NCBI GenBank assembly: GCA_965248925.1 | Contig: CBDFLE010000006.1 | Coordinates: 5,088,001 to 5,152,000 of the forward strand | Source of the DNA: Candidatus Multivoradales bacterium | GTDB lineage: Bacteria; Acidobacteriota; Thermoanaerobaculia; Multivoradales; J023 | DNA: 64,000 nt | Direction: 5' to 3' | Part shown: positions 4,593 to 50,098 of the stretch, piece by piece | How positions within the stretch are numbered: the first letter of the stretch is position 1 | Layout: each line of letters opens with the position of its first letter | Translations under genes and position numbers: made by a program | Notes under the pieces: generated by a model | What the model saw: the letters and a program-made list of their open reading frames with translations, nothing else | Database searches by the model: none | What the model was told of the DNA's origin: nothing

Positions 4593-4657
4593 GAATGCCC
4601 TGAGCGTCCTGGTCGCGGATCGGCCGCGGATCGAGTTGGGTGCTCGGTTACAATGGC

Positions 4658-4705
4658 GGCTCATGACTGGCAAGGCTCATGACTGGCAAGGCTCATGACT
4701 GGCAA
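4658..4705 (+). repeat. Three exact tandem copies of 16-bp GGCTCATGACTGGCAA spanning the sigma start codon
   Basis: Read directly: 4658-4673, 4674-4689, 4690-4705. A TACAAT -10-like box sits at 4649-4654. Confidence 0.95.
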
Positions 4706-5384: not shown

Positions 5385-6247
5385 TGGATCACGGTTACAT
5401 CGAAGAGCAAGCGCTGATCGAGCGCTACTTTCGTGGTGATTTGCCAGCTGTCGAGGAAGCAGCTTTCGAACAACACTTCTTCGCTTGTGAGCGCTGCCAG
5501 GGCGAGCTCGAGGTGGCGCGGGAAATGGGGCGTGGACTGAAGGCGGTGGCGGCTCAGCAGGCGGTCCGACCGGCCGTCGTGTCAGGAGCTGTACTCGGTT
5601 GGCTGGCCCGCCGCTCGGCTCTCCAGCTGGGTCTGCTGGCGGCGACTCTGTTGGCGGCCTTGGCCCTACCCCTGTTGGTTTTCTATGGCCAGCAGCGCGA
5701 ACTCGACGAGCAGCTACTCGCCGCCCATTCCACCACTCAAGAACTGCGGCAAGACCTGGTCGATGAACGTCAGCGAGCCAACCAGGCCAGCCAGCGTCTG
5801 GTCGTTTCCGCGAGTGATTGGCAAGCACAGCGTCAGCAACTCGAGGAGAAGCTCAAGGAACTCGCTGCCAGCGAATCACCAGCTACGGGGCTGTCCCAGC
5901 CGCTGGTCGACGCGGCGGTCTACCTGCTGGCCGCCATGCGTGACTCGGCGGCGCGGCCAGTGGTGGTTGTGCGCCGGCCGAGCGCTGCGGAGGGCGCCTT
6001 CAGCTTGGCCGTCGATGTGGGTGCCGCTGCCTACGATAGCTATCGCGTAACCATTGTCGATGGTGATGGCGAGCGCCGTTTCGAGCGTGCAGGCTTGAAG
6101 CTCAACGTCCTGGAAGTGGTGATGGTCACTTTCCCCGCTCGCTTCCTCTCGCCGGGCGACTATCGCCTCGAGCTTGCCGGTCGCGAGCCTGGTGGCAAGC
6201 TCACGGTGTTGGCGAGCCACCGTTTTCGCGTTGCCGGGGATTCTTGA
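5381..6247 (+). CDS. zf-HC2 (ZAS) membrane-anchored anti-sigma factor
   Basis: HFFACERC = HxxxCxxC; one TM helix (LGLLAATLLAALALPLLVFYG); coiled coil; C-terminal beta domain; coupled to the sigma gene. Confidence 0.88.
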   Translation: MMDHGYIEEQALIERYFRGDLPAVEEAAFEQHFFACERCQGELEVAREMGRGLKAVAAQQAVRPAVVSGAVLGWLARRSALQLGLLAATLLAALALPLLVFYGQQRELDEQLLAAHSTTQELRQDLVDERQRANQASQRLVVSASDWQAQRQQLEEKLKELAASESPATGLSQPLVDAAVYLLAAMRDSAARPVVVVRRPSAAEGAFSLAVDVGAAAYDSYRVTIVDGDGERRFERAGLKLNVLEVVMVTFPARFLSPGDYRLELAGREPGGKLTVLASHRFRVAGDS

Positions 6248-10991: not shown

Positions 10992-12044
10992 ATGTCAGCC
11001 CCCAGCAACAAGCAGAAGAGTCTCAAGAGCCTCGGTAAGCTACGTCGGCGGTCGGTCCGCATCACGTCGAGTTCGTTGGTTGAGGAAGGGGCGATAGATC
11101 CAGGTCAGACCCTCCCCTGGAAGATTCACGCTACCCGACCCGATGTCAGCCTGCTGTCCTGGGCAGCGGACCACCGCGAGCATATTCGTGAGCTCGTCCT
11201 GCGCCACGGAGGGGTTCTTTTCCGCGGTTTCAAGGAACGTGGAGTAGAAGACTTCGAGAGCCTGATTGGCGTCGTCTCCGACAAGCTCTTGGAATACAAG
11301 GAGCGCTCTTCGCCGCGCAGTCAAGTCCAGGGCAACGTCTACACATCGACCGACTATCCGCCTGATCAGGAGATCTTTCTGCACAATGAGAACTCCTATC
11401 AAAGCGGTTGGCCGCAGAAGATTTTTTTCTTTTGCTTGCGGTCTGCGACAGAGGGGGGAGCGACGCCGCTAGCCGATTGCCGTCAGGTGTTTCAGCGGCT
11501 GGCGCCGGAGATTCGCCAGCGCTTTGATGATTTGGGTTGGATGTATGTGCGCAATTTCGGCGATGGCTTCGGCTTGTCGTGGCAAACAGTTTTCCAGACC
11601 GAGGATCGCGCGGTGGTCGAGGCCCATTGTCGTCGCAACGGAGTTGCGATCGAGTGGAAAGATGGGGGCCGGCTTCGTACCCGTGCCATCCGCCCGACGG
11701 CTTTGCGCCATCCGCAATCCGGCGAACTAACTTGGTTCAACCACGCGACGTTCTTCAACATCTCGACCTTGGCGCCGTCGATTCGTGAGGCTTTGCTGGG
11801 AGAATTCGCGATCGAGGACGTTCCCGCTCACACTTACTATGGCGACGGGACAGCGATCGAAAGCGAGGTTCTGGACGACTTGCGGCAGGCCTATAGCCAG
11901 GAAACTACCCGCTTCTCCTGGCAGGAAGGGGATCTGCTAATGCTCGACAACCTGACGGTAGCTCATGGCCGGGATTCTTTCGCCGGCGACCGCAAAGTGG
12001 TCGTCGGCATGGCCGAACCTGGTAGTTGGAGCGAGTTAGAGTGA
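10992..12044 (+). CDS. TauD/TfdA-family Fe(II)/2-oxoglutarate dioxygenase, SyrP-like NRPS beta-hydroxylase
   Basis: RSSPRSQV.GNVYTSTDYP, IFLHNENSY (HxE), WFNHA, DNLTVAHGR...RKV; GGAGA RBS. Confidence 0.92.
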   Translation: MSAPSNKQKSLKSLGKLRRRSVRITSSSLVEEGAIDPGQTLPWKIHATRPDVSLLSWAADHREHIRELVLRHGGVLFRGFKERGVEDFESLIGVVSDKLLEYKERSSPRSQVQGNVYTSTDYPPDQEIFLHNENSYQSGWPQKIFFFCLRSATEGGATPLADCRQVFQRLAPEIRQRFDDLGWMYVRNFGDGFGLSWQTVFQTEDRAVVEAHCRRNGVAIEWKDGGRLRTRAIRPTALRHPQSGELTWFNHATFFNISTLAPSIREALLGEFAIEDVPAHTYYGDGTAIESEVLDDLRQAYSQETTRFSWQEGDLLMLDNLTVAHGRDSFAGDRKVVVGMAEPGSWSELE

Positions 12045-13319
12045 GCTGGTGGGCTCTCCGGCCCCTTCTATAGCCAGGCGATGTAGTAGCTCAGCTGTCT
12101 CTTCAGCGGCTTCTTGATTGCCCTGCTGGCGATGGTAGCGCTCGAGCAAGACGGCGTCGGCGTGGGTCCAAACGCCGCCCTGGGCGAGGTGAATGTGGGC
12201 GAAGAGTTCTTCCACTCGGTCCTCGGCCCCTTGCTGGTCGAGCAAGAGGCGGATCAGCAAGCTGACCGATGGCAGGTGCAGCGAGCGTCCGCCACAGGCT
12301 CCCGAGCAGCAGCTGCGAACTTCGCTGTCGAGCAAGCTGATGGCCTCGGCTGGCCGCTCGAGACGGTCGAGGACCCCAGCTAGTCGTTGGGTGAAGTCCT
12401 GCTGGGCTGGGAAGCGGCGATGGGCGTTGGCGAGAAACTCGGCTGCTTCGGGCCAGCGCTCTGAACTTTGCAGAGCAGCGGCATAGGCGGCGGTGAGCGC
12501 CGGGTCGAAATGCTGTGGCGGGCTGATCTCGGCGAGCCGGGTCAGCACGGCTTCGGGTTCACCGGCGGCGAGTTGCGCTTCGCTCCACAGGGTGGGCAGA
12601 GACAGGGCGCCTGCGTGATCGAAGGGTTCGACTCCGAAGACCTCCCAAACAGCTTCGAAATCAGCCCGAGCCCCTACCCCATCTCCCTGCAGCAGCCGGC
12701 AACGGCCGCGTTCCAAGCGCAGGGCCGGCTCGCTCGGAAACTGCTCGCAGAGAACCTCGAGGGTTTCGGCAGCGGTGGCCGTGTCACCGGTATTGAGGGC
12801 AACCCAGGCGGGCCGAAAAGCTTCCGGCAGCCGTTGCCAGAGGCCGACCACCTCGTCGACTAACGAGTCGAGCAGGGCGTGGTAGTGAGCCTCGAATTCG
12901 ATCTCCGCCGCCGGTCGATCGTCGGCCGCGCGGTCGGCAAGGGCCTGCGCTTCGGTCGTGGCAGCGGCTTCCGCTTGCTCGTCGATCCGTCGCTGAAAAA
13001 TCCTAGCTCGCTGCTTCAAGGGGCGGCGGATGTCGATGTCCGAAGCTCGTTCCAGCGCCACCTGGGTGTAGTCCAGGGCCTCTTCCCAAAGTTCTGCTCG
13101 CTCGGCAACGTCGACCCGCTCGATGGCGATGGCAAGCAGCCGCGCGTCGGCCTGATCGGCGAGCTCGCGGGCGCGCTCTTGCAGCCGTCCTTCGCTGCGA
13201 TGCTCTACTCGCCGCGCCAGCGCCAACGCTCGCGATGGGTCGTCTCGCTTTAGCAATTCGCTGGCTTGCACCAGCAATGCCGCTGGATCGCGGCCAAACA
13301 ATCGTCCAAGAAGGCTCAT
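12036..13319 (-). CDS. Tetratricopeptide-repeat-like helical protein with a CCxxxC patch
   Basis: Ala/Leu/Glu-rich helical repeats (e.g. LRLERGRCRLLQGDGVGARADFEAV); RSCCSGACGG near the C-terminus; likely start MSLLGRLFG; divergent from the radical SAM operon. Confidence 0.7.
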   Translation of the reverse strand: MSLLGRLFGRDPAALLVQASELLKRDDPSRALALARRVEHRSEGRLQERARELADQADARLLAIAIERVDVAERAELWEEALDYTQVALERASDIDIRRPLKQRARIFQRRIDEQAEAAATTEAQALADRAADDRPAAEIEFEAHYHALLDSLVDEVVGLWQRLPEAFRPAWVALNTGDTATAAETLEVLCEQFPSEPALRLERGRCRLLQGDGVGARADFEAVWEVFGVEPFDHAGALSLPTLWSEAQLAAGEPEAVLTRLAEISPPQHFDPALTAAYAAALQSSERWPEAAEFLANAHRRFPAQQDFTQRLAGVLDRLERPAEAISLLDSEVRSCCSGACGGRSLHLPSVSLLIRLLLDQQGAEDRVEELFAHIHLAQGGVWTHADAVLLERYHRQQGNQEAAEETAELLHRLAIEGAGEPTSSL

Positions 13320-13606
13320 CGATCTGGATCTCCAAGGTAAGCGAGAGGTTTGCTCTGGCAGCGACAATAGTGCTGCTGGCTGGCCTTTACAACAATTTTA
13401 CCCGGCCGGGTTCGGCCGTCGCCGAGGCCGCAAAGAGTATGACCAGTGCGCCTCACCGCAGCATTTCGAGGTCTGGGAGGAAGTAGCCGCTGGCTGACGC
13501 CGAGGATTGTAAGCAGCGGTGGCAGAACTCCGGCCGAGGAGTCTGCGTAGCAGCTGGTATCGTCCGCCAGTGGCCTGATTCCAACCCCTCCCAAGGAGCC
13601 CATATC

Positions 13607-14911
13607 GTGACGTCTTTGGCCCGGTCTGTGCCCCAGTCCAATCCGATCTCCGAGTCTGCCGCAGAATCGCCCTATCGGCACGAGGCTCCCCGGCGTTCGT
13701 TTCTGCGCGAGCAGGCTACCTTGGCGCGTTTGGCTTGGCGGACTCTCACCGAGATCTCCCCCCGAGCACTGCTCAAGATGCTCTACCTCTATGCCGGCAA
13801 AGGGGCGGCGGCGGTGTGGGCTTACAAACGGCGATTGGCCAAGGGCGAGCTGTACCCGCCTTTCTTGTTCATCGCCGTCACCAACACCTGCAATCTGCGC
13901 TGCCACGGCTGCTGGGTCGAGAAGGAAGGGCAAGCTCATTTCCTCACCGACCAAGATCTCGACCGGATGATCGTCAGCGGCAAGCGGCAGAAGTCCTACT
14001 TCTACACCCTGCTCGGTGGTGAGCCCTACCTGTTCAAGGGCATTTGGGAAGTCTTTGAGCGGCATTCGGATTGCTATTTCCAGACCATCACCAACGGCAT
14101 GTTGTTCACCGACGAGAATGTCGCCAGGCTGCGGCGCACTGGCAACGTGACGCCGCTGATCAGCCTCGACGGGTTCGAGTCGCAGAATGATTTGCGTCGT
14201 GGTGAAGGAGTGTGGGACGCGGCCCTCGCCGGCATGGAGCGGTTGCGGAAAGCGAAGCTCTTTTACGGCGTGGCGACCACCGCGACGGCGCTGAACATGG
14301 AAGAGGTCATGTCGGACGACTACGTGAACTTCTTTATTGAACGCGGCGCCATGTATCTCTGGTATTACGTCTACCGGCCGATGAGTCCCGAGCCGCACAC
14401 CGAGTACTGCGTCAGCGAAGAGCAGTTGCTGTGGATGCGGCGTCGCCTGCTGGAATTGCGCCGCCGTCACCCGATTCTGATTATCGACACCTACTGGACC
14501 GCTGATGGCGAGGCGTTTTGCCCGGCGGCCACCGGCCTAGGCTTTCACATCGGGCCGCAGGGATCGGTGGAGATCTGCCCGGCCCTGTCTTTCGCCACCG
14601 CCACCGTGCGTGGTGAGCGGGAAGACCTTTATGACACCTTCAACGGCAGCGATTTCTTGCGCGGTTTTCAGGGCTTCGTCAAAGAGCGCACCAAGGGCTG
14701 CGTGATTCTCGAGCATCCGCAAGAGCTGCGCGACTACATCGAAGACGCTGGCGCTCGGGACTACAGTGGGCGCGGCACCGCTTTCTCCGAACTCGGCGCG
14801 CTGTCGCCGCGGCATAGCCACCACCTGCCGGGGCGTGAGATACCCGAGGATTTCTGGTTTTATCGGTTGCTCAAGAAGAACGTATTCTTCGGCATGGGCG
14901 CCAACGGGTGA
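13607..14911 (+). CDS. Radical SAM enzyme with C-terminal twitch/SPASM-like cysteines
   Basis: CNLRCHGC, LGGEP, TNG, ISLDG; later FCPAATG...EICP...KGC; AAGGAG RBS before GTG. Confidence 0.92.
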   Translation: MTSLARSVPQSNPISESAAESPYRHEAPRRSFLREQATLARLAWRTLTEISPRALLKMLYLYAGKGAAAVWAYKRRLAKGELYPPFLFIAVTNTCNLRCHGCWVEKEGQAHFLTDQDLDRMIVSGKRQKSYFYTLLGGEPYLFKGIWEVFERHSDCYFQTITNGMLFTDENVARLRRTGNVTPLISLDGFESQNDLRRGEGVWDAALAGMERLRKAKLFYGVATTATALNMEEVMSDDYVNFFIERGAMYLWYYVYRPMSPEPHTEYCVSEEQLLWMRRRLLELRRRHPILIIDTYWTADGEAFCPAATGLGFHIGPQGSVEICPALSFATATVRGEREDLYDTFNGSDFLRGFQGFVKERTKGCVILEHPQELRDYIEDAGARDYSGRGTAFSELGALSPRHSHHLPGREIPEDFWFYRLLKKNVFFGMGANG

Positions 14912-16119
14912 GGGGTGATTCCGAGCCGGTGATCTACCTCGATCACCACGCCACGACCCCCTGTGATCCGCGGGTTCTTGAGGCCATGTTGCCGTATTTC
15001 ACGGAGAACTTTGGCAATCCATCGAGCACCCAGCATGCCTATGGTCGTCGTGCGGAGGCGGTGGTGGCGGCGGCGCGAGCCGAAGTAGCGGCGCTGATCG
15101 GTGCCAGAGCGAGCGAGATCGTCTTCACCTCGGGAGCCACCGAGGCCGACAATCTGGCTCTCTTCGGGGTGGTCGCGGCAAGCCGCTCGCGGGGACGCCA
15201 TGTCATCACCCAAGTGACCGAGCATCGGGCGGTGCTCGACGCCTGTGGCGAGCTCGAGCGCCAGGGCTGCGAAGTGACCTATCTGGTGGTGGAGTCTGAC
15301 GGTCGGGTAGATCCAGATCGAGTCGCGGCGGCTTTGCGATCCGACACAGTTCTGGTGTCGATCATGCTGGCCAACAACGAGATTGGAACGCTACAGCCGA
15401 TCGCTGAGATCGCCGCCCGCTGTCGCCGCCAGGGCGTACCGCTGCACACCGATGCGGCCCAAGCCCTGGCGCTAGTCGATTGCCACCTAGAGAGCCTAGG
15501 GGTGGATCTGATGTCCTTTTCGGCCCACAAGGCTTATGGCCCCAAGGGTATCGGCGCTCTCTATGTGCGCCGTCGCCAACCGCGAGTGCGGCTGCTGGCG
15601 CGGCAATTCGGCGGCGGCCATGAGCGAGGCCGTCGCTCTGGAACTCTCGACGTACCTTCCATCGTTGGTCTGGCCACTGCTAGTTCTCTGGTGACCGCGG
15701 AGCGTGACAGCGATGCCCGACGCCTGGCCGGCTTGCGGCAGCGCTTACTTTCGGGGTTGCGTCGAGCGCTTCCGGGAGTTGAGGTCAACGGTTCGCTCGA
15801 GCATCGATTGGCCAATAATCTCAATGTCAGTTTACCCGGGATTCATGCCGATCTCGTGCTGCAGGAAGTCTCGGGGGTGGCGTTTTCGAGTGGCGCCGCG
15901 TGTACCTCGCCAGCAGGTTCAAGTTCTCATGTGTTGGCGGCTCTGCCGGAGGGGCGCCAGCGGGCGGATAGGGCGCTGCGGTTCGGCTTGGGTCGTGGCA
16001 CCACCGCTGGCCAGATCGATGCTGCGGTGGCTGAGATAGCCAGGGCTGCCAGCGCGGTGGGGAGCCGGCCACTGGCAGCGGAAGAATCCTGTGCGGTAGC
16101 CGTCTGTGAGGTGCTGTAG
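14908..16119 (+). CDS. IscS/NifS-type (group I) cysteine desulfurase
   Basis: IYLDHHATTP, FTSGATE, NNEIG, HTDAAQ, SAHKAYGPKG (PLP Lys), SSGAACTS (catalytic Cys). Confidence 0.95.
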   Translation: MRGDSEPVIYLDHHATTPCDPRVLEAMLPYFTENFGNPSSTQHAYGRRAEAVVAAARAEVAALIGARASEIVFTSGATEADNLALFGVVAASRSRGRHVITQVTEHRAVLDACGELERQGCEVTYLVVESDGRVDPDRVAAALRSDTVLVSIMLANNEIGTLQPIAEIAARCRRQGVPLHTDAAQALALVDCHLESLGVDLMSFSAHKAYGPKGIGALYVRRRQPRVRLLARQFGGGHERGRRSGTLDVPSIVGLATASSLVTAERDSDARRLAGLRQRLLSGLRRALPGVEVNGSLEHRLANNLNVSLPGIHADLVLQEVSGVAFSSGAACTSPAGSSSHVLAALPEGRQRADRALRFGLGRGTTAGQIDAAVAEIARAASAVGSRPLAAEESCAVAVCEVL

Positions 16120-16650
16120 TTGAGAGACACGGTGAAGTTCAACAGCTTAGTGCCGTCGGAAGACCTGCCGCCGAAAAACCTACGACCGCGAGACTTCGTT
16201 CGCTTTCGCCGGCACCGGTTTGTCGCCAAATTCCCCCGCTCCTACCGCTACAGCCCGGCCCACTTCTGGCTCTGCGAAGACGAGGGCGTGCAACACATCG
16301 GCCTCACCCATTTCGCCACCCGGATGCTGGGGGAGATTGTTGAATTCGACTTCGAAACCAAACCCGGCAATGCAGTCGAGGATGGGCAGGTGATTGGCTG
16401 GATCGAAGGCATGAAAGCGGTGACCGATCTTTTCTGTGTGGCGCGCGGCAGCTTCGCCGGGGTCAACTCGACCGCCCTCGACGACCCCGAGTTGGTGTGC
16501 AAAGACCCCTATGGATATGGCTGGCTTTACGCCGTTCACGGCCAGCCCGGCACCGGCACTCTGGATCTCGACCAATACCTCGAAATGCTCGGCGAGACGA
16601 TCGACGCGATGGAGGAGCAGCCTTGGAAAACACCGCAGATGGCGACTTGA
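16120..16650 (+). CDS. Glycine-cleavage-H-like lipoyl carrier protein
   Basis: YRYSPAHFWL, IGLTHFATRMLGEIV, IEGMKAVTD (lipoyl Lys position), DPYGYGWL. Exact start uncertain (TTG 16120 or GTG 16132). Confidence 0.88.
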   Translation: MRDTVKFNSLVPSEDLPPKNLRPRDFVRFRRHRFVAKFPRSYRYSPAHFWLCEDEGVQHIGLTHFATRMLGEIVEFDFETKPGNAVEDGQVIGWIEGMKAVTDLFCVARGSFAGVNSTALDDPELVCKDPYGYGWLYAVHGQPGTGTLDLDQYLEMLGETIDAMEEQPWKTPQMAT

Positions 16651-17840
16651 GTCGCAGCCTGAAGAGCGCCGCCAACCTCACCGCCAACCGCGCTGCTAAG
16701 GCACCGCGGGCGCGCTACATGATGATCGGTGGCTTTCTCGGCGCCGGTAAGTCCACCGCTGTTGGTCAGCTGGCCCGGAGGTTCACCGAGCGGGGGATTC
16801 GGGTCGGTCTGATCACCAACGATCAAGGCCGTGGCCTGGTGGATAGCCGCAGCCTCAGACACCAAGGCTTCGCCGTGGAAGAGATCGCTGGCGGTTGTTT
16901 CTGCTGCCGTTTCGATTCGTTGAAGGGCGCCGCCGACCGCTTGACCAAGCAGCAGCGTCCTGAGGTCTTCATTGCCGAGCCGGTCGGTAGCTGTACCGAT
17001 CTGGTGGCGACGGTCAGCTATCCGCTGCGCCGCCTTTATGGCGACCGCTTCGCTATTGCCCCTCTTTCCGTGTTGGTCGATCCGCTGCGGGCGGCGCGGG
17101 TACTGGGGATCGAAGAAGGGCGGAAATTCTCCGCCAAAGTGCGTTACGTCTATCTCAAGCAGCTCGAAGAAGCGCATGTGCTGGTGATCAACAAGATCGA
17201 CTTATTGGACGATCTCAAGCGCCGGGCTTTACGCCGCGAACTTGCCGAGCGCTTTCCCACCGCACGGATCTTCGAAGTCTCGGCCCGCCAGGGAGCGGGT
17301 CTCGAAAAGTGGTTCGAGTATCTAGAGCAGAACTCCATCCCCAGTTCGCCGACCCTGGAGATCGATTATCAGCGCTATGGCGAGGGCGAAGCTCTGCTCG
17401 GCTGGCTCAACGGCACCCTCAGGCTGCGGGCTGATCAAGAACTCGACGGCAATGCCTGGACCGTGGCCTTCGCCCGTCGCTTGCAGCAGCGGCTGCTGGC
17501 CGAAGAGGTTGAAGTTGCCCACTTGAAGATGACCCTATCGCCGCTGGCCGAGGCCGGCAGTAGGGATGCCAACAGTGAAGACGAGGAAGTGCTGCCCGGC
17601 GATTTGGCCCTGGTCAACCTGGTTAACAACGACTTCGTTCCCGAAATCTCAGAGCGGTTGGCCGCGCCGTTGCGCCATGGGCAGTTAGTGGTCAATCTGC
17701 GTGCCGAGGCCGCGCCGGCAATCCTCCTGCGGGCTTTCGAAGCGGTGATCGATGGGCGCCCAGAGTTGCGCTTGGAACATGTCGAATGCTTCGAACCGGG
17801 ACAGCCGCGACCCACTCACCGGATGACTTTTGGGAGCTGA
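16647..17840 (+). CDS. CobW/COG0523 (G3E) metallochaperone GTPase
   Basis: GGFLGAGKS Walker A, ITND, GGCFCC (CxCC), EPVG, INKID; TTG 16647 overlaps the upstream stop. Confidence 0.9.
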   Translation: MSRSLKSAANLTANRAAKAPRARYMMIGGFLGAGKSTAVGQLARRFTERGIRVGLITNDQGRGLVDSRSLRHQGFAVEEIAGGCFCCRFDSLKGAADRLTKQQRPEVFIAEPVGSCTDLVATVSYPLRRLYGDRFAIAPLSVLVDPLRAARVLGIEEGRKFSAKVRYVYLKQLEEAHVLVINKIDLLDDLKRRALRRELAERFPTARIFEVSARQGAGLEKWFEYLEQNSIPSSPTLEIDYQRYGEGEALLGWLNGTLRLRADQELDGNAWTVAFARRLQQRLLAEEVEVAHLKMTLSPLAEAGSRDANSEDEEVLPGDLALVNLVNNDFVPEISERLAAPLRHGQLVVNLRAEAAPAILLRAFEAVIDGRPELRLEHVECFEPGQPRPTHRMTFGS

Positions 17841-17845
17841 CCAGA

Positions 17846-18226
17846 ATGGAAACCACGGCAGCCAACTCAGCTGAACGGCGCATTCTTTACTGCCACTGCG
17901 CCTTCTCGCGGGTGGTGAAGGAGGAGGTGAAATCGGCGGTATTCGCTGGCCTGGCCAGCTCGGGCCAAGCCTTCGACGCCGTGCCCGATCTCTGCGAATT
18001 GGCCGCCAGGCAAGATCCGGCGCTACATCGACTGGCCGCCGGCCGCCGGCCGGTCGAAATCGTCGCCTGCTACCCGCGAGCGGTGCGTTGGCTGTTTCAT
18101 GCCGCGGAGGCTGATCTACCCGAGGACAATGTGCGGATTCACAACATGCGGGCCGAGGAGTCGACCACTATTCTCGAGCGCTTGCTCAAAGAAGACAGCC
18201 TCGCCGACCCGGAGACTAGAGGTTGA
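17846..18226 (+). CDS. Small Cys protein resembling the heterodisulfide reductase A N-terminal Fe-S domain
   Basis: ILYCHCA...DLC...IVACYPR...HNMR parallels HdrA VCHCG...C...VAACSPR...NIRE (similarity judged by eye). Confidence 0.6.
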   Translation: METTAANSAERRILYCHCAFSRVVKEEVKSAVFAGLASSGQAFDAVPDLCELAARQDPALHRLAAGRRPVEIVACYPRAVRWLFHAAEADLPEDNVRIHNMRAEESTTILERLLKEDSLADPETRG

Positions 18227-19044
18227 ACCCCTTACAACAAGACCGGCTGCGGGTGGTGATCGACCGCGGCGAGAGGCCAGCGGTAGCGCCACAAGTTGCG
18301 CTCTTGGAAAAGCTCCTGAGCAGCGGCGTGGCACTGACGGCGAGTGGCGAAGGTGCGGTGGCGCCGCTCGACGACGCCGAGCTGCTGGTGCTTGAGACCA
18401 CCACGAAAGCCAACGTTGAGACGGCGAAATCGACCGCCGAAGAAGGGGTCCAGCTGACCAAGATGGCGGTGGGTGGCCTCGACCCTGCCGAGGTTTTGAG
18501 TCGGGTCGAGGCCAAGGGCCAGGGCAAGCCGGCCGGTGGCTGGACGCCGTGGTTTCCAGTGATCGACTACGATCGCTGTACTAACTGCATGCAATGCCTC
18601 AGCTTCTGCCTTTTCGGGGTCTACGATGTCGACGCTGAAAAGCAGATCGACGTCAAGCATCCCGAACGTTGCAAGACCCTCTGCCCGGCCTGCTCGCGGG
18701 TCTGTCCGGAAGTGGCGATCCTCTTTCCCAAATACAAAGCTGGTCCGATCAATGGCGATGTGGTGAAAGACGCCGATCTGGCGCGGGAGAAGATGAAGAC
18801 CGATATCTCCTCCCTGCTCGGAGGCGATATCTACTCCTTGCTACGCCAGCGAACCGAGAAGGCGGCTTCCAGATTTTCCAAGGAACGCGACGAAGATCGA
18901 GCACTCAAAGAACGCCAGCGTTGTCTGGCCAAGCTCAAGAAAGATCTCGACATTCCCGACGAGGTCCTATCCCAACTACCGACCGCCGAAGCCATCCGGG
19001 CGCGCGCCAGCGAACTTCTGGCGGCGCGCACCAAGGGAGAATGA
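18223..19044 (+). CDS. 2x[4Fe-4S] ferredoxin-domain protein
   Basis: IDYDRCTNCMQCLSFC and CKTLCPACSRVCPEVAI; overlaps both neighbours by 4 nt. Confidence 0.88.
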   Translation: MNPLQQDRLRVVIDRGERPAVAPQVALLEKLLSSGVALTASGEGAVAPLDDAELLVLETTTKANVETAKSTAEEGVQLTKMAVGGLDPAEVLSRVEAKGQGKPAGGWTPWFPVIDYDRCTNCMQCLSFCLFGVYDVDAEKQIDVKHPERCKTLCPACSRVCPEVAILFPKYKAGPINGDVVKDADLAREKMKTDISSLLGGDIYSLLRQRTEKAASRFSKERDEDRALKERQRCLAKLKKDLDIPDEVLSQLPTAEAIRARASELLAARTKGE

Positions 19045-20762
19045 TCATGCCACTGCCGGTGATGAGTCTGCCAAAGGTCATGATGCCGCGCCTCGAAAGG
19101 CCGGTGCAAGCCAATATTCCGCCGACCCGAGAGCAACGCGACGAGCTGCTGGCCCGGATCCGCGAATTCACTGCGACGACGGATCTGGTGCCGCCATTGC
19201 CTCTCGCTGACTTGCAGGTCGAGGCGGAGAAGATCTGTCGACGGCATGGATTTGATCCTGCCTTCAGCGAATTCGCCGCTCTGTTGATTAGCAACGAGTT
19301 GTGGCGTGAGTCGTTGGCCTCAGTGCCTTTCGAGCGCCGCCTGTTGCTGTTGCCCAAATGCATGCGGGTCGAAGAGCACTGCCCAGCTCCCTTCGATGAG
19401 TTGGGTCTGCTATGCAAGAAGTGTGGCCTGTGTTCGATCGAGGATCTGCAAGAAGAAGCCGAGCGCATGGGATATGCCGTCTTGGTGGCGGAGGGCTCGC
19501 CGATCGTCATGGCGATAATCGAGACCGGCCAGATCGAGGCCATCGTCGGGGTCAGTTGTCTCAACGTGCTGGAGCGGGTATACGGCTATATGGAGGCCGC
19601 GGCCATTCCCGGCATCGCCCTACCGCTGTTGCAAGATGATTGTCTGGACACCAACGTCGATCTCGATTGGGTGTGGGATTCAGTCCATCTGACCAGCGAC
19701 GACAAGACCCGGCGTTTGGATCTTGGCGGGTTGCGTGACCAGGTCGCCACCTGGTTCGGGGCGCTGGCCCTGCAGGAGATCCTGGGCGAAGCAGAGACCG
19801 AGACTGAAAAGATTGGCCAAGAGTGGTTGGCCCAAGGAGGCAAGCGCTGGCGCCCCTTCCTGACCGTCGCTCTGCATCAAGCCTTGCAAGAAGAACCCGG
19901 TGCCGAGATCTCCAAGGTCATCCGGCAAGTCGCCTTGGCGGTGGAGTGCTTCCACAAGGCTTCGCTGATTCACGATGACATCGAAGACGGTGATGATCTG
20001 CGCGATGGCCGCGAGACTTTGCACAGCCGGCTGGGGGTGCCCCTAGCGCTCAATGTCGGCGACTATCTGGTCGGCGAAGGCTACCGCCTGCTAGCCACCG
20101 TCGAAGCCCCCGCCGAAAGCATCGCGGAGATGCTGCGCTTGGCGGCGGAGGGGCATCGCACTTTGTGTCTGGGCCAGGGCGATGATCTGGCGTGGTCGCA
20201 AGAGCCCAAGATCCTGAAGCCGATCGAGGTGGTGAAGATCTTCAAGAACAAGACCGCGCCAGCTTTCGAAATTGCCTTGCGACTGGGTGCGGCCTGCGCC
20301 AGCGCCAGTGCCGAGTTGCACGACACCCTGAGCGCCTTCAGCGACGCCTTGGGAGTGGCCTATCAAATTCGTGACGATCTCGGCGAGTTGCGTGAAGCCG
20401 CTACCGCCGGAGAGGCGCCAGAACGCCGGCCGACCTTGGTCTGGGCGTTGGCCTATGCCGCGGCCAAGAAAGCGCGGCGAGCCGAGGTCAAGGCAGCGTG
20501 GATCGACGGTCAAGGAGCGCCGGCCGAGCTGCACGCCCTGTTGACCGATCTCGGTGCGGACACGAGAGCCGAGGAATTCCTCAACGCCTATCGAGACGAA
20601 GCGATCCGCTCTCTGCGGTTGTTGCAGGACGCCAATGTCAAGGGTCTCCTGCGGCGGGTGCTGGGCAAGATTTTCGACGAGCTCAAGATCGAGGGGTGGT
20701 GTAGTGAGTTTGAGACTGGAGATGTTGCAAGTCGCCAGGCTGGCGCCGCGGTTGCTGGGTGA
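19041..20762 (+). CDS. DUF116 (Cys-rich) - trans-polyprenyl diphosphate synthase fusion
   Basis: N-half: LLLPKCMR...CPA...CKKCGLC...GVSC...LLQDDCLDTNVD. C-half: GGKRWRP, first Asp-rich motif HDDIEDGDDLRDG, GQ, KTA, second motif YQIRDDLGE. ATGA overlap at 19041. Confidence 0.88.
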   Translation: MIMPLPVMSLPKVMMPRLERPVQANIPPTREQRDELLARIREFTATTDLVPPLPLADLQVEAEKICRRHGFDPAFSEFAALLISNELWRESLASVPFERRLLLLPKCMRVEEHCPAPFDELGLLCKKCGLCSIEDLQEEAERMGYAVLVAEGSPIVMAIIETGQIEAIVGVSCLNVLERVYGYMEAAAIPGIALPLLQDDCLDTNVDLDWVWDSVHLTSDDKTRRLDLGGLRDQVATWFGALALQEILGEAETETEKIGQEWLAQGGKRWRPFLTVALHQALQEEPGAEISKVIRQVALAVECFHKASLIHDDIEDGDDLRDGRETLHSRLGVPLALNVGDYLVGEGYRLLATVEAPAESIAEMLRLAAEGHRTLCLGQGDDLAWSQEPKILKPIEVVKIFKNKTAPAFEIALRLGAACASASAELHDTLSAFSDALGVAYQIRDDLGELREAATAGEAPERRPTLVWALAYAAAKKARRAEVKAAWIDGQGAPAELHALLTDLGADTRAEEFLNAYRDEAIRSLRLLQDANVKGLLRRVLGKIFDELKIEGWCSEFETGDVASRQAGAAVAG

Positions 20763-21642
20763 TTCCACCGAGCTGATCCGCGATTTCACCTTGGCGGCGC
20801 AGGCGCCGGACGGGGGATTCCGCGACCGCGGCGGCGACAGCGACCTCTATTACACGGTTTTCGGCCTCGACGTGTTGGCGATTCTCGAGGGTCTCGGTGC
20901 TAGCGGTAGTGAAGGAACTCAGACAGATGCTGAGGTCTGGCGCCGTGCCGGAGGTTTCTTGGCTAGCCTGGGTCACCAAGATCTCGATCTAGTGCATCTG
21001 ACCTGCCTGGCGCGATCCGCGGCAGCCGTTGCCGCGGGAACCAAGACCGCGGAGCTGCCCATCGATCATCAAGTCCTGGTCGATCGTCTTCTAGATCTTC
21101 GCCGTCAAGACGGAGGCTGGGCGATGACCTCGGGGGATTCCTCCAGCACCACCTATGGCACATTCCTGGCCATCGGCGCCCATCAAGACCTAGGGCTGCC
21201 CTTTGCCGCCCCCTCCTCGGCAGCGGCTTTCCTGGCGGCGGCGGTCGGCGAAGACGGCGGCTACGGCTCTGCCCCTTCGATGCCGGTGGCGACCACGCCG
21301 ACCACCGCGGCGGCGGTGGTGGCGCTGCGTCAGCTAGGTGCCGAAGCTCACCCCCAGACCGCCCGCTGGTTGCGCCGTCAGTTGCATCCTCAGGGAGGAT
21401 TTGTGGCGGCGGCTGGAGCTCCGATGCCCGACTTGCTGTCCACCGCGGTGGCCCTGCATGCGTTGTCCGTCTTGCAGGAGCCATGTGCCGATCTGGTCGA
21501 TTCGCTGCTCGATTTTGTCGATAGCCTGTGGACCTCGCGCGGTGCCTTCTTCGGCCATTGGGCGGACGATGCAGCAGATTGCGAGTACGCCTACTACGGC
21601 TTGTTGGCCCTGGGACATCTGGCGGTTTGGAGCGACGGATGA
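20704..21642 (+). CDS. Prenyltransferase/squalene-oxidase-repeat alpha/alpha barrel, protein-prenyltransferase-beta-like
   Basis: Repeats AQAPDGGFRDRGGDSDLYYTVFGL, RRQDGGW, EDGGYG, PQGGF, DCEYAYYGLLAL; single barrel of about 312 aa; no cyclase DxDD. Confidence 0.8.
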   Translation: MSLRLEMLQVARLAPRLLGDSTELIRDFTLAAQAPDGGFRDRGGDSDLYYTVFGLDVLAILEGLGASGSEGTQTDAEVWRRAGGFLASLGHQDLDLVHLTCLARSAAAVAAGTKTAELPIDHQVLVDRLLDLRRQDGGWAMTSGDSSSTTYGTFLAIGAHQDLGLPFAAPSSAAAFLAAAVGEDGGYGSAPSMPVATTPTTAAAVVALRQLGAEAHPQTARWLRRQLHPQGGFVAAAGAPMPDLLSTAVALHALSVLQEPCADLVDSLLDFVDSLWTSRGAFFGHWADDAADCEYAYYGLLALGHLAVWSDG

Positions 21643-23507
21643 GCATCGCGGCCGCGCGCAGCCCACCATCGCCAGCCAAGGCCTCCGCAGCCGAACTTGA
21701 CCGCGTCTTGGGTGAAGTGCGGGCCGAACTCGTGCGCCGTTTTCAGCCTCGTGGCCACTGGCGAGGCGGTTTGTCATCGAGTGCTCTGTCGACCGCGGTG
21801 GCCTGCTTCGCTATCACCTTGGTTAGCGAGCAGCGAGGACAGTGGCCAGAAGACTCGCGCGCCTTGGCCCGTCGCGGACTAGATTGGTTGGCTGCCCATG
21901 CCAATGCCGACGGTGGTTGGGGAGATACGGTCCGGTCGGTATCCAACTTGCCCACCACGGTTCTGGCCTGGGCTGCGCTGCGGGCGGCGAGGGACTCCGA
22001 AGTCGGTGCGGTCACAGGTCTTGCATTGGCCATCGACGGTGCCGAAAGCTGGATTGTGCGCCGCACGGGGGACTTGCAACCAGACTCGCTGCGACGGACG
22101 ATCGAAGACCTCTACGGCAAGGACAAAACCTTCTCCGTACCTATTCTCACCCTGGTCGCGCTAGCCGGGCTGCTGGGCCCAGAACCCGATTGCTGGCGCG
22201 GTATCACCCCTTTGCCTTTCGAGTTGGGGGCGTTACCCCAGGCGACTTTTCGCTTCATCGGCCTACCGGTAGTGAGTTACGCCTTACCGGCGTTGATCGC
22301 TGTCGGCCAGGTACAGCACCATCGTCGACCGTCGAAGAACCTGTTGGCGCGCTGGCTACGGCAGATCTTGCGCGCTACCACTCTGCGCCGCTTGCAAACC
22401 CTGCAGCCCTCGAGCGGTGGATTTCTGGAAGCGATTCCGCTCACTGGCTTCGTCACCTTGAGCCTCGCCGGAGCGGGGGAGTGCGATCACGCCGTGGTGC
22501 GAAAGGCGCAGGAGTTCTTCGCTCAGTCGGTGCGCGAAGATGGCAGCTGGCCGATCGATGTAGATCTGGCCACCTGGATCACCACCCTGTCGATTCAGGG
22601 ACTGCGAGAATCAGGGGGAGTGGCAGCAGCGGTGGGCGTGGCTGGGGTGGCAAGCTTACGCCGCTTCTTGCTCCAACAGCAGTACAAAGAGATTCACCCC
22701 TTCACCGGTGCGGCTCCCGGAGGCTGGGCCTGGACCGATCTGCCGGGGGGCGTTCCTGATGGCGACGATACTCCTGGAGCGGTCTTGGCCCTGCGGCATC
22801 TCGGACCAATCGACGACCAGGTTCGGGCCGCTGCCGCCGCCGGTTTGCGCTGGCTTATCGGCTTACAAAATCGCGATGGCGGCATACCGACCTTTTGCCG
22901 CGGCTGGGGCACCCTGCCCTTCGATCGCAGTTCTCCCGACCTCACCGCCCATGCACTGCGCGCGATCCACGCCTGGCGCGACGAGCTTGCTGAGGACCTT
23001 CGGTCCAGCCTCGATCTCTGTGCCCGCCGCTGTCGGCAGTATCTGCACCGGGTCCAACACGCCGATGGCTCGTGGGTACCCTTGTGGTTTGGCCACGAAG
23101 CTGCGCCGTCGAACGAGAATCGGGTCTTTGGAACCGCCCGAGTTCTGCGCGCCTTGGTCGAGTTGCAGGATCCTACGGTGGCATCGATGATCGAGGCCGG
23201 CCGAGCCTACTTGCTAGCGGCCCGCAACAACGACGGAGGTTGGGGTGGCGGCGAGGGCATCGCTTCGTCGATGGAGGAAACCGCACTAGCGCTCGATGCG
23301 CTGTCGCGTCTAGAAGACCCAGATCTAGCACCAATTCTTCAGCAAGCCGCCGGTTTTTTGTGCCGGGCCTGGGATGCTGGCCGCTTCAAGCAGGCGACAC
23401 CGATTGGTTTTTACTTTGCTAATCTGTGGTACTTCGACGACGCCTATCCGCTGGTCTTCACCGCGGCGGCGCTGGGGCGGGCGCAGGGGGTCCTGGCGGT
23501 GCGTTGA
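21639..23507 (+). CDS. Squalene-hopene-cyclase-like class II terpene cyclase
   Basis: QW-type repeats (NADGGWG, REDGSWP, LQNRDGG, VQHADGSW, NNDGGWG) and GGWAWTDLPGGVPDGDDT with DxDD; ATGA overlap. Confidence 0.88.
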   Translation: MSIAAARSPPSPAKASAAELDRVLGEVRAELVRRFQPRGHWRGGLSSSALSTAVACFAITLVSEQRGQWPEDSRALARRGLDWLAAHANADGGWGDTVRSVSNLPTTVLAWAALRAARDSEVGAVTGLALAIDGAESWIVRRTGDLQPDSLRRTIEDLYGKDKTFSVPILTLVALAGLLGPEPDCWRGITPLPFELGALPQATFRFIGLPVVSYALPALIAVGQVQHHRRPSKNLLARWLRQILRATTLRRLQTLQPSSGGFLEAIPLTGFVTLSLAGAGECDHAVVRKAQEFFAQSVREDGSWPIDVDLATWITTLSIQGLRESGGVAAAVGVAGVASLRRFLLQQQYKEIHPFTGAAPGGWAWTDLPGGVPDGDDTPGAVLALRHLGPIDDQVRAAAAAGLRWLIGLQNRDGGIPTFCRGWGTLPFDRSSPDLTAHALRAIHAWRDELAEDLRSSLDLCARRCRQYLHRVQHADGSWVPLWFGHEAAPSNENRVFGTARVLRALVELQDPTVASMIEAGRAYLLAARNNDGGWGGGEGIASSMEETALALDALSRLEDPDLAPILQQAAGFLCRAWDAGRFKQATPIGFYFANLWYFDDAYPLVFTAAALGRAQGVLAVR

Positions 23508-23740
23508 CGGGTGGCTGGGGAAGGTTTGAGGTCAGCGGCGAAACTCCGTGGTGGCGGTTTTCGAACTAAGATCTTCTCCGTTTTTCGGGCATCTCCCAAA
23601 GAGGATTCGAGTCCCTTCAGGAATTTCTCTCGGTAGTGTTGTCAGGGGTGCGAGCAGGGATTGGTTTGCTAGTGTTATTTGAGCATTTCCTACCCCGGAA
23701 CACGCTTGGACCGCACCTCGGAAGACCTCCAACGCTAGCT

Positions 23741-26700
23741 ATGGCAACTCCACCCGTCTGTTCATCGCCGGCCTCAGCAAACAACCTGGTAGACCTGCTG
23801 CGGAGGCGTAGCAGGCAGCACCCTGACCGTATCGCCTTCATTTTCCTCAGCAATGGCGAGGAGGAGGGCGAGCGTCTGACCTATGGCGAACTCGATCAGC
23901 GGGCGCGGGTTCTCGGTTCCCATCTGCGCCGCAAGCTGCCAGCCGGTGAGCGGGCGCTGCTGCTCTATCCTCCTGGTTTGGAACTCATCGTCGGTTTCTT
24001 CGGTTGTCTCTATGCCGGCATGGTCGCTGTGTTGGCCCACCCGCCGCGCGGCCGGCGGACGCTGCCGCGCCTGGCGGCGATCGTTGCCGACGCCGCCCCT
24101 GGAGCGGTACTGAGTCAGACCGTCGAGATGCGCCGGATTGCCGCCTGGGCGAAGCAAGTTGAAGCTCTCGCTCGGGTCGAGCTGATCGCTTCGGATGCAC
24201 TCGCCGAGGAACTCGCCGACGGGTGGCGCGATCCACGAAGCGAGCCGCAGACACTGGCTTTCCTGCAATACACCTCAGGTTCCACCGCCGCTCCCAAAGG
24301 AGTGATGGTCAGCCATGGCAACCTGCTGCACAATGAACGCTTGATCCAGTCTGCCTTTCGCCAACCCGAGGGGACGGTGGTGGTCGGTTGGTTGCCGCCG
24401 CAGCACGACATGGGTCTGATCGGCAATGTAATACAACCGTTGTACATGGGTGGCCGCGCCATCCTGATGTCACCGGTGGCCTTTCTGCAGAGTCCGGTTC
24501 GCTGGCTGCGGGCGATCGATCGCTACCGGGCGAATGTCAGCGGTGGTCCCGATTTCGCTTACCAGCTGTGTGTCGATCGCATTGAGCGGCAGCTGTGTTC
24601 AACGATCGATTTGAGCTCCTGGGAAGTGGCCTTCAATGGCGCCGAGCCGGTGCGTGAGGAGACCCTGCGGCGGTTTTCCGAGCATTTCTCCGACGCCGGC
24701 TTCAGCGCCGCGCGGTTTTTCCCCTGCTATGGCCTGGCTGAAGCTACCTTGCTGGTGTCGGGTGGCCGCCAGGCCGCCGAGCCTGTGCGGCGGCTGGTGT
24801 CGTCGAAAGCCCTGGCGCTCGACCAGATCCGTCCGCCGGAGCCTGGCGATGAGGCCGGCCGTTGGTTAGTGAGTTCTGGCCGCTGCCATCCCGAGGTCGA
24901 GGTGGTGGTGGTCGAGCCGCAGACCGGCCGACCTGTAGAGCCCGGTGAGGTCGGCGAGATCTGGGTGTCGGGGCCGAGTGTTGCCGCCGGCTACTGGCAC
25001 AATCGCCAGGCCACCGCGGAGATTTTCGAAGTTGCCGTAGCCGGTCGGCCGGGGCGTTTCTTGCGTAGCGGCGATCTGGGCTTTGTCGATCAAGGAGAGC
25101 TCTTCGTCACCGGCCGGCTGAAGGATCTGATCATTATTCGCGGCCGCAACCACTACCCGCAGGATCTAGAGTTGACCATGGAGGGGTGCCACCCAGCGGC
25201 GATCAGCGGCCGTGGCGCGGCGTTTTCGGTAGATCGGGGAGGAGGAGAACGCTTGGTTCTGGTGCAAGAGGTGCTGCGCGATGCTGACTTGGTCGTCGAA
25301 GATCTGCTGAGCACCGTCTGTCAGGCCGTTGCCGAGCTGCATGAACTACAGGTTGAAGATCTGCTGCTGATCCGCCGTGGTTCTTTGCCGGTCACCACCA
25401 GCGGCAAAGTGCGTCGCCGACGGTGCCGCGAACTCTATCTCCAGGATCGACTGCGGGTGGTGGCGCAGTGGGGTCGCCAGCAGGGCGCGGCCAGCGCGGT
25501 GGGTGGCGTCATTGCCCGGCCTAGCCTTGACCGGCTGCGGACGATGGACCGGGAGCAGCGTCGGACCACTTTGGGGCCCTACCTATTGCAGCAGTTGGCG
25601 GACGGTCTGGAGATCGATGTCGCCCAACTCCGTCCGGATCGACCGTTGACCGCCCAGGGACTCGATTCGCTGAACGCGCTGGAACTCGGGCATCGGGTCG
25701 AGTCAGAGTTCGCTGTGAGGTTGTCGGTCGCCGAGCTGTTGGCCGGGGCGAGCCCGAGACAGGTGTTGGAGCGGCTGGTGGATGGCATCGACACGCGATC
25801 CAGCGCCAGTCCTGAGCACCGCCCCGAGAATTCGCTTGGAGACGCCCTTTCCTACGGCGAGAAATCGCTCTGGTTTCTCCATCAGTTGGCGCCCCTGAGC
25901 GCTGCCTACAACTTGTTCGGAGCGTTGCGGGTGCAGCCGGCTCTCGATCCTGGCCGGCTACGTCGGGCGGTGGCGGCCCTGGCCCGTCGGCATCCGGCGC
26001 TGCGCACGACCTACGGCACTCGCCAGGGCCAGCCCTATCGCCGGGTCGCGGCCGCCGCGGAAATGGCCGTGAACGTGGCTGTGGAGATTGAGCCTACTGC
26101 CGGCTGGAGCGTAGCGAAGCAGCATTCGCGAATGGTCGAACTGGCGCATCAGCCTATCGATCTCGAATCAGGACCGCTGCTGCGGGTGGTGCTGTTCACT
26201 GCTGATACCGACGACAGCCGGCTGTTGCTGGTGCTGCATCACATCGTCGGTGATTTCTGGTCGTTGGCCATTCTGGCGCAGGAATTGGGTCTGCTCTATG
26301 ACGATCTAGAATCTGTCTTGCCGACCTTGCTGACAACCTATGCTGAGTCCGTGCAACTGGCGGCGGCCGACCTTGATGGGCAGCGCGGCAAGGTCGATTG
26401 GAAGTACTGGCGGACGCTGCTCGCCGCCGCGTTCGAGGATCTCAATCTGCCCACTGACCGGCCGCGACCGGCGTCGCAGACTTTTGTCGGCGATCGCCGT
26501 CTGATCCACTGGCCGGCGCCTTTGAAGGCGGCGGTCGAGAGTTTGGCCAAGGACCATGGGGTTACTGTTTACGTAGTCTTGTTGGCGGTCTTTCAGGTGC
26601 TGCTGCACCGCCTGTCCGGCCAATCGAACTTTGCTGTCGGCTCACCTTTCGCCGGCCGCGAGCGGGCCGAACAGAAGAGTGTGGTCGGCTATTTCGTCAA

Positions 26701-50061: not shown

Positions 50062-50098
50062 CCCCTGGCTTGGATCGGCCGACGGAGAACATTTCAAT

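Follow-up and report, generated by a model that had tools for sequence, protein, structure and literature searches.

What does a tight run of nine genes, combining iron-sulfur (Fe-S), sulfur-handling and isoprenoid enzymes, make or modify? The question is raised by the open reading frames (ORFs) g1 to g9 at positions 13607-23507 of a 64,000-nucleotide stretch (here called the window, G000:C6:5088001-5152000) from the genome, about 8 Mb in size, of a Candidatus Multivoradales bacterium. All nine lie on the plus strand and are co-oriented, translationally coupled and nearly gapless; a first-pass annotation of this DNA had described them as abutting or overlapping with gaps of 5 nucleotides (nt) or less, and with the ORF starts that we assign the largest gap is indeed 5 nt. 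The protein families named there, i.e. a radical S-adenosylmethionine (SAM) enzyme (g1), a cysteine desulfurase (g2), an H-protein-like carrier (g3), a GTPase (g4), a ferredoxin (g6), a DUF116-polyprenyl synthase (g7), a prenyltransferase-like toroid (g8) and a cyclase (g9), are recovered with Pfam and NCBIfam models, the label of g5 being a separate matter that is discussed below. We find that the nine genes form a single co-conserved unit, to which the neighbouring non-ribosomal peptide synthetase (NRPS) cluster does not belong, and that the unit has an invariant core (g5/g6, g1, g7, g8 and g9) to which g2-g4 are an add-on. As to its function, we give about an even chance to the view that the operon by itself encodes a pathway which needs no oxygen and leads to a cyclic polyprenoid of non-squalene origin, with tailoring by Fe-S and radical enzymes.

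At least 545 relatives of g7 exist in genome contigs, and with g7 as query 80 related loci were fetched from species genomes. The nine proteins were placed on these loci by tblastn, together with three flanking sequences of the window, namely a TauD-type dioxygenase, the first 667 residues of the NRPS and a 443-residue upstream ORF. Linkage was counted only where g7 is flanked by at least 6 kb on its upstream and at least 4 kb on its downstream side, which holds for 39 loci; the other 41 are too short for this purpose, many of them hold the expected parts, and a Gemmatimonadales contig with short flanks contains eight of the nine genes. Genes g3-g9 occur together in 20 of the 39 loci, 19 of which have all nine, six more are partial, and the remaining 13 hold g7 alone or with one or two others. 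The full loci come from Acidobacteriota (Thermoanaerobaculia, Vicinamibacterales, Holophagae), Verrucomicrobiota, Planctomycetota and one Candidatus Limnocylindria (Chloroflexota), so the gene set, whose conservation the first-pass annotation had left to be checked, is co-conserved in several phyla, and its arrangement is not due to chance. The order varies by group, g1 being first in the group of the window and between g6 and g7 in most others, and the position and strand of g2 shift among loci. None of the three flanking sequences was matched in any of the 80 loci (E<=1e-8), therefore we regard the operon as separate from the adjacent NRPS cluster. An all-against-all clustering of ORFs gave no tenth conserved family, once the shadow ORFs of this high-GC DNA had been assigned to the nine genes. 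Taking g5 as a marker specific to the system, we counted 5 carriers among 201 sampled genomes of the window's phylum (including the window genome and G054) and 11 among 151 sampled genomes of the phylum of G004, a genome that also bears on the cyclase question below. The cluster is thus real, conserved and patchily distributed, and is assembled from members of known families.

A reduced form of the locus is present in eight of the 11 marker-positive genomes from the phylum of G004 (loci L088-L095, i.e. G267, G213, G345, G294, G351, G225, G342 and G350). It consists of a fused g5-g6, g1, g7 and g8, with g9 next in four cases; in the four genomes without an adjacent g9 the gene lies elsewhere (4 out of 4, fragmented in one). 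No g2, g3 or g4 was found within the fetched stretch of these loci, and g2 had no match in the nine loci L087-L095, which take in the reduced forms. Five reduced-form genomes have no g4 orthologue (0 out of 5, with one weak paralogue at E 7e-7) and no g3 orthologue, their only H-type protein being a generic GcvH with 25-31% identity (5 out of 5). As the reduced form lacks the desulfurase, the H-like protein and the GTPase, g2-g4 are best described as an accessory module; housekeeping IscS and GcvH could substitute for g2 and g3 in these genomes. The g5-g6 fusion is common as well: the g5 family has 705 representatives at E<=1e-3, and among the best 150 of these 58 are at least 245 residues long, 55 of the 58 carrying the ferredoxin motif of g6, so that g5 and g6 are often one protein. 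Unlinked g7, alone or only with g8 and g9, was followed in five genomes (Chthoniobacteraceae, Prosthecobacter, Verrucomicrobiaceae). All five have g5 elsewhere (E 1e-45 to 1e-56), beside g6 and often beside g3, g4 or g2, and all five have g9 elsewhere (E about 1e-165). A cultured bacterium that has the genes is Chthoniobacter flavus Ellin428 (L017, L082). The neighbours of the unlinked g7 genes (Sel1 repeat, DUF1501, sulfatase) offer no functional hint, nor do those in L088, L089, L092 and L093 (amidohydrolase, efflux pump, FtsK, BamB-like, GHMP kinase). We add two side observations. The reduced form occurs in genomes of 2.2-5.6 Mb and the full form in larger ones, and the fragmented g9 orthologue (G351:C11:27651-29404) is matched as four consecutive pieces in different frames, indicative of a decaying gene or of assembly errors.

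Table 1. The nine genes of the operon, in window coordinates
Gene	Position	Strand	Assignment
g1	13607..14911	+	radical SAM enzyme with twitch-like auxiliary-cluster domain
g2	14908..16119	+	IscS/NifS-like cysteine desulfurase (accessory module)
g3	16120..16650	+	glycine-cleavage H-protein-like carrier (accessory module)
g4	16647..17840	+	CobW/G3E-type GTPase, GGCFCCRF motif (accessory module)
g5	17846..18226	+	small four-cysteine protein, predicted flavodoxin-like fold
g6	18223..19044	+	2x[4Fe-4S] ferredoxin-like protein with conserved C-terminal extension
g7	19041..20762	+	DUF116 (Cys-rich, flavodoxin-like) fused to trans-polyprenyl diphosphate synthase
g8	20722..21642	+	single alpha/alpha-toroid, prenyltransferase/cyclase fold; without DxDD and without conserved Cys
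g9	21639..23507	+	class II terpene cyclase with two domains, 'SHC-like' type; 622 residues

The cyclase g9 decides whether the locus should be seen as a hopanoid locus. It is matched by the Pfam pair SQHop_cyclase_N/_C (PF13243, 92.2 bits; PF13249, 46.7 bits), motifs like those of squalene-hopene cyclase (SHC) run along its whole length, and the catalytic DxDD motif is intact (VPDGDDT, with D374, D376, D377 and T378 invariant in 31 sequences). On the squalene-hopene cyclase equivalog model TIGR01507, in contrast, it scores 72.7 bits against a cut-off of 431.1. It is the sole cyclase match in the window genome (57 bits), which has no true SHC. Two other genomes have both kinds of protein: G004 and G005 encode true SHCs of 693 and 688 bits, respectively, as well as g9 orthologues that score about 100-107 bits on the same model. 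Because its orthologues coexist with bona fide SHCs, we assign g9 to a family of its own and do not regard it as a hopene cyclase that has diverged, and the candidate function of hopene cyclase was rejected on these two grounds. The first-pass statement that the hopanoid, glycine-cleavage and sHdr partners are missing from the window holds in that a scan of the longer window ORFs, with the second NRPS protein covered to residue 4000, detected no hpnCDE/sqs or hpnH, no gcvP/T and no Hdr gene. No squalene-supply (Sqs, HpnCDE) or hpn family is conserved beside the cluster, and the SQS_PSY family has no match in the window, its only match in the genome being at C6:814290, about 4.3 Mb away.

The second toroid protein, g8, is matched by PF00432 (Prenyltrans, 50.8 bits) and has only weak matches in the PDB (E about 4e-6). 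At the position of the cyclase DxDDTA motif it has an invariant PDLLSTA, and many aromatic and acidic residues are invariant in 37 sequences; no Cys is found among the invariant or near-invariant columns of these sequences. The zinc site of protein prenyltransferase beta subunits is made up of Asp, Cys and His, and since g8 has no conserved Cys, it is not a zinc-type protein prenyltransferase. We speculate that g8 may pair with g9, in line with the altered dimer surface that has been described in the SHC-like clade. A search for longer forms of g8 gave no g8-g9 fusion, which is weak evidence; one 734-residue protein covered only 17% of g8 and is probably a read-through from g7. A predicted complex of g9 and g8 had a score of 0.00, which speaks neither for nor against binding.

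The chain for such a cyclase would come from g7, in which DUF116 (PF01976, 117.2 bits) is joined to a polyprenyl synthase domain (PF00348, 143.6 bits against a cut-off of 27). This fusion is universal in the g7 family. The DUF116 half has seven Cys that are invariant in 36 sequences (C107, C114, C125, C128, C131, C173 and C201), and a profile of the domain gave chance-level matches only among PDB sequences (E>=0.17). In the synthase half, the first Asp-rich motif (FARM, HDDIEDGD) and the isopentenyl diphosphate-binding GKRWRP are conserved in 81 sequences, and the best alignment is to archaeal geranylgeranyl diphosphate (GGPP) synthases (1wy0, E 1.6e-24). Five residues before the first Asp-rich motif, Ala replaces the Tyr of the archaeal GGPP synthase. 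A Tyr-to-Ala change at this fifth residue is known to lengthen the product of prenyl synthases, so the product of g7 is probably longer than C20.

The radical and Fe-S proteins of the core are recognizable to different degrees. In g1 (PF04055, Radical_SAM, 60.4 bits) the CxxxCxxC motif (CNLRCHGC) is followed by a twitch/SPASM-like CX14GX4C and GC, all conserved in 39 aligned sequences, and the closest solved relatives are SkfB (6efn, E 1.3e-10), BlsE and CteB (5wgg, E 9e-5). On the HpnH model (TIGR03470) g1 scores 37.5 bits against 225.05, through its radical SAM core only and below many other radical SAM models. The ferredoxin g6 has matches to the Fer4 family and 2x[4Fe-4S] motifs; CTNCMQCLSFC, CKTLCPACSRVCPE and a C-terminal stretch are conserved in 32 sequences. 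The latter is a charged, strongly conserved extension at residues of about 165-260 (FPKY..GPINGD ... RFSKERD ... DIP.EV) without family assignment, which may be a docking segment. The small protein g5 belongs to no Pfam family, finds nothing meaningful among PDB sequences, and in the ESM Atlas matches 'hypothetical protein' clusters only, and four of its Cys (C16, C18, C50 and C75) are invariant in 30 sequences. Its AlphaFold2 model is confidently flavodoxin-like (predicted local distance difference test score, pLDDT, 88). In Foldseek the HdrA/MvhD structures were matched with E values of 0.021 (7bkb_A) and 0.026 (5odc_D) and none at E<=1e-3, and VIA-align returned generic flavodoxin-like structures only (Z<=7.2). 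The designation 'HdrA-N-like Cys protein' is thus plausible, though weakly supported and unproven. We consider g5 probably an Fe-S electron carrier.

The accessory module consists of g2, g3 and g4. The desulfurase g2 (PF00266, Aminotran_5, 246.8 bits) scores 445 and 433 bits on the IscS models, in both cases under the equivalog cut-off. The carrier g3 (PF01597, GCV_H, 69.7 bits) has 69.6 bits on the gcvH model TIGR00527 against 115.85; the genome has four GCV_H matches, of which g3 scores lowest, the three better ones lying elsewhere, and gcvT and gcvP are not found among the scanned window ORFs. The Lys of its EG.KA..D motif, the putative lipoyl site, is kept in at least 90% of 33 sequences. 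The GTPase g4 (PF02492, cobW, 76.1 bits) has its Walker A motif (GAGKST) and GGCFCC conserved in 32 sequences; its best NCBIfam model is 'CobW-related selenoprotein' (58.4 bits against 180), it scores 40.4 bits against 332 on the CobW equivalog, and its C-terminal half is without assignment, no match to CobW_C being found. Most likely the module serves the delivery of sulfur and metal to the many Fe-S sites of the system. It can be added that in G115 (C1:5477987-5478316) the g5 match lies inside a 916-residue open frame that is read through one TGA. Selenocysteine may be used in relatives, and the GTPase domain of g4 is closest to the selenoprotein model just named.

A working scheme can be drawn from these parts; its substrate, chain length, step order and product, and the part played by each Fe-S protein, are inferred. 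It would begin with a regular (head-to-tail) polyprenyl diphosphate, probably longer than C20, built by the synthase half of g7. The DxDD acid of g9 would protonate a double bond and fold the chain, or its de-phosphorylated form, into rings, with g8 as a second binding or cyclase-like partner. Then g1 and the Fe-S DUF116 half would carry out a radical or reductive step, e.g. a reductive loss of the diphosphate or an HpnH-like addition to a double bond; conceivably the allylic diphosphate made by the synthase is the target of the attached DUF116 domain, and g1 attacks the chain at a double bond or a C-H. Electrons for the two would come from a dedicated carrier pair, g5/g6, and g2, g3 and g4 would supply sulfur and metal for about six Fe-S clusters or, possibly, sulfur for the product. 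One could go further and speculate that the cluster is a biological route to polycyclic regular polyprenoids, i.e. lipids of the tricyclohexaprenol type, for which we see a slim chance. The chain made by g7 would then be a C30 or longer head-to-tail polyprenyl, g9 and g8 would cyclise part of it without oxygen, and completion of the head group would fall to the Fe-S and radical SAM proteins. Ourisson's group reportedly put forward lipids of this type as 'primitive' reinforcers of membranes, from which the tricyclic terpanes (cheilanthanes) found in sediments and oils would derive. Cheilanthanes are among the biomarkers without a characterised pathway (10.64898/2026.01.29.702649).

Several points weigh against the non-squalene route as we have drawn it. 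With a squalene/phytoene synthase homologue elsewhere in the genome, squalene could still be the substrate of g9, and g9 is only tentatively placed in the published SHC-like clade, by its length, taxa, motifs and non-squalene context. In g7 the second Asp-rich motif is DDLGE in the window and keeps only its DD among relatives, so normal chain elongation is not certain; the suggested chain length depends on one position; and the model of the DUF116 domain has a moderate pLDDT of 71.4 and resembles no solved fold at E<=1e-3 (Foldseek). The presence of g2-g4 in most full loci is more than a pure maturation role would require. A housekeeping role is unlikely because the cluster is rare in both phyla sampled.

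The alternatives differ mainly in what they make of the sulfur genes and of the chain. Lipoyl and biotin synthases insert sulfur into their substrates, and in a similar way the operon might make a sulfur-bearing isoprenoid lipid or cofactor, g2 mobilising the sulfur from cysteine, the lipoyl arm of g3 relaying it and g1 inserting it into the polyprenyl chain, perhaps after cyclisation. The linkage of g2 in 19 of the 20 full loci, the conserved lysine site of g3, and the thioether-forming SkfB and CteB among the relatives of g1 argue in this direction. However, the reduced clusters hold g1, g7, g8 and g9 without nearby g2, g3 and g4, g4 orthologues are missing from the five reduced-form genomes, whose H-type protein is just a generic GcvH, some six Fe-S clusters would equally predict a dedicated desulfurase, and the cluster has no enzyme to attach a substrate to g3. 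We regard sulfur in the product as rather unlikely, and keep the idea alive at this lower level because g2-g4 are regular in the larger clusters. Alternatively, g3 could itself be the target, the operon building a new prenyl- or sulfur-bearing prosthetic group on its lysine, in favour of which stand the conservation of this residue and the status of g3 as a diverged paralogue. Yet g3 is absent from the reduced clusters and has no orthologue in any of the five genomes, no lysine ligase or transferase is encoded, and g8, without a conserved Cys, lacks the zinc site of the protein prenyltransferases; this makes a carrier target very improbable. The first-pass proposal had been a self-contained pathway for a sulfur-containing or radical-modified cyclic isoprenoid, or for a modification of the carrier. 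Its notion of one unit stands, whereas sulfur product and carrier modification are less likely as the core function since the reduced form lacks g2-g4.

The chain could also be of the squalene type, with g7 joining two prenyl diphosphates head to head, a ferredoxin providing the reduction, g9 forming a hopene-like polycycle and g1 acting like HpnH, in parallel to the hopanoid pathway. A synthase, a cyclase and a radical SAM enzyme do mirror Sqs/HpnCDE, Shc and HpnH, and the window genome has no true SHC. A Bipolaricaulota cluster has been described in which DUF116 stands beside IspH, SHC, HpnH and a polyprenyl synthetase (10.1101/2025.11.21.689855). The synthase of g7 is, however, of the chain-elongating PF00348 type and not SQS_PSY, g1 fits many radical SAM models better than HpnH, g9 orthologues coexist with true SHCs in two genomes, and the published tree sets the SHC-like clade beside cyclases of head-to-tail substrates (PMC12414744). 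We judge this route distinctly unlikely. Least credible of all is the idea that the nine genes tailor the adjacent NRPS product to give a terpene-lipopeptide hybrid: the operon does sit between the TauD-type dioxygenase (10992-12044) and the fatty acyl-AMP ligase (FAAL)-initiated NRPS, the first gene of which is 128 nt from g9, but neither of these, nor the 443-residue ORF, accompanies it in any of the 80 related loci.

The locus can be compared with systems that are already known. 'SHC-like' cyclases were defined in 2020 by Santana-Molina et al., according to whom the catalytic residues are retained in the Planctomycetes members, whose gene neighbourhood hints at non-squalene precursors (PMC7306690). 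McShea et al. (2025) treat the SHC-like clade, which occurs in the PVC (Planctomycetes-Verrucomicrobia-Chlamydiae) and FCB (Fibrobacteres-Chlorobi-Bacteroidetes) groups, Spirochaetota and Acidobacteriota, as unassigned in function, place it as sister to cyclases of head-to-tail epoxy-polyprenyl substrates, and report that it has an excess of substitutions at the surface through which SHC dimerises; of the 14 cyclases that they expressed, none is listed from this clade (PMC12414744). Gemmata obscuriglobus is reportedly among the members of the clade. g9 resembles these proteins in length (the published filter is 550-700 residues), in its two toroid domains and kept DxDD, in its occurrence in Planctomycetota, Verrucomicrobiota and Acidobacteriota, and in a context that points away from squalene. 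The difference is that partners of the Fe-S, radical SAM, H-protein, GTPase or DUF116-synthase kinds are not mentioned in the main texts of these papers. The hopanoid pathway (Shc, HpnCDE or Sqs, HpnH) shares the cyclase fold, the DxDD acid, the adjacent radical SAM enzyme and the independence of oxygen; unlike it, the cluster has no squalene synthase, and g9 and g1 stay far below the cut-offs of the SHC and HpnH models (72.7 against 431.1 and 37.5 against 225 bits). The sporulene route of Bacillus, HepST-YtpB-SqhC, likewise combines a polyprenyl synthase with a class II cyclase and a non-squalene substrate. The same combination of polyprenyl diphosphate synthase, class II cyclase and non-squalene substrate is seen with the Lon15/AtoE epoxy-polyprenyl cyclases (PMC12414744). 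In contrast to these two routes, the nine-gene cluster has no epoxidase (none is needed) and no class I YtpB-like partner, while they have no counterpart of its Fe-S and radical SAM proteins.

H-type carriers also occur with Fe-S proteins in other settings: sHdr sulfur oxidation uses lipoate-binding H-like proteins, and in the maturation of [FeFe]-hydrogenase an H-protein works with HydE/G/F, where radical SAM enzymes and a GTPase are present as well. Here, however, no HdrB/C, DsrE, TusA, LipS, HydE/G/F or hydrogenase gene was found among the scanned window ORFs, and g3 is dispensable in the reduced clusters. As regards DUF116, Makarova et al. (2015) described the family (PF01976, arCOG02078) as a Cys-rich, flavodoxin-like, predicted electron-transfer protein, and named the DUF116-polyprenyl synthetase fusion Psta_0175 of Pirellula staleyi (PMC5898192). 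The archaeal proteins share with g7 the Cys-rich character, the CxxCxxC motif and the flavodoxin-like core, but they have two N-terminal membrane helices, whereas the first 100 residues of g7 show by eye no apparent hydrophobic stretch, and they adjoin sulfite/nitrite reductase or ATPase genes (PMC5898192). We found neither a description nor a characterised counterpart of the full nine-gene set in the papers searched; fig. S10 of PMC7306690 may show part of it. The system, to the first-pass annotation the best candidate for an undescribed one, is not entirely new, two of its parts having been noticed before, the DUF116 fusion in 2015 (PMC5898192) and the SHC-like cyclases with their context in 2020 (PMC7306690).

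The gene boundaries and surroundings of the operon can be described as follows. The likely starts give 4-nt overlaps at g1/g2, g3/g4, g5/g6, g6/g7 and g8/g9; g2 and g3 abut, and the end of g4 (17840) is separated by 5 nt from the ATG of g5 (17846). The start of g4 is a TTG at 16647 that overlaps the g3 stop by 4 nt, g7 starts with an ATG at 19041 and g9 with an ATG at 21639, and the GTG of g1 is preceded by AAGGAG 9 nt upstream. The g7/g8 overlap is longer, 41 nt, with an ATG for g8 at 20722 and the end of g7 at 20762; we assign this start because it fits the family consensus MLQVARLAP. A scan of 12000-24500 gave no promoter-like sites (0), and terminator-like sites did not exceed those of shuffled sequences. 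Among sequencing runs, four of DNA, all of one study, were listed, and none of RNA. The upstream side holds a CHAT/TPR protein, a sigma factor, TerC, a GDSL-type protein, the TauD-type dioxygenase and the 443-residue minus-strand ORF. The latter, a putative gene at 12036-13367 (-) without Pfam family, diverges from the operon. Further out, at 728-6247, are a CHAT-domain protein with TPR repeats (1127 residues), a small ORF and an extracytoplasmic function (ECF)-type sigma factor (4695-5384); a 288-residue ORF without family overlaps the sigma gene and may be a candidate anti-sigma factor. Downstream, the FAAL-initiated NRPS cluster extends from 23636 to the window end (64000) with ORFs of 2864, 5885, 1129 and 2142 residues and one that is open-ended, and contains a gene of the aromatic amino acid lyase/aminomutase type (49994-51619, PF00221). 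The likely product of the NRPS is a lipopeptide that contains hydroxylated as well as beta- or dehydro-aromatic residues.

Class II terpene cyclases make the hopanoids and sterols whose fossils are used to read Earth history. According to McShea et al. (2025), knowing the substrate of the SHC-like enzymes would constrain the evolution of substrate use in this enzyme family (PMC12414744). The cluster described here would give a cyclase clade that has been flagged as an open problem the gene context it lacked, parts of which were noticed before. It is a concrete, testable gene set, in which a chain synthase and an Fe-S domain are one protein, accompanied by a radical SAM enzyme, a private carrier pair and a second toroid protein, and it would place DUF116 for the first time in a functional setting. 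The comparison of full and reduced loci defines a minimal core of five proteins (g5 and g6 being fused).

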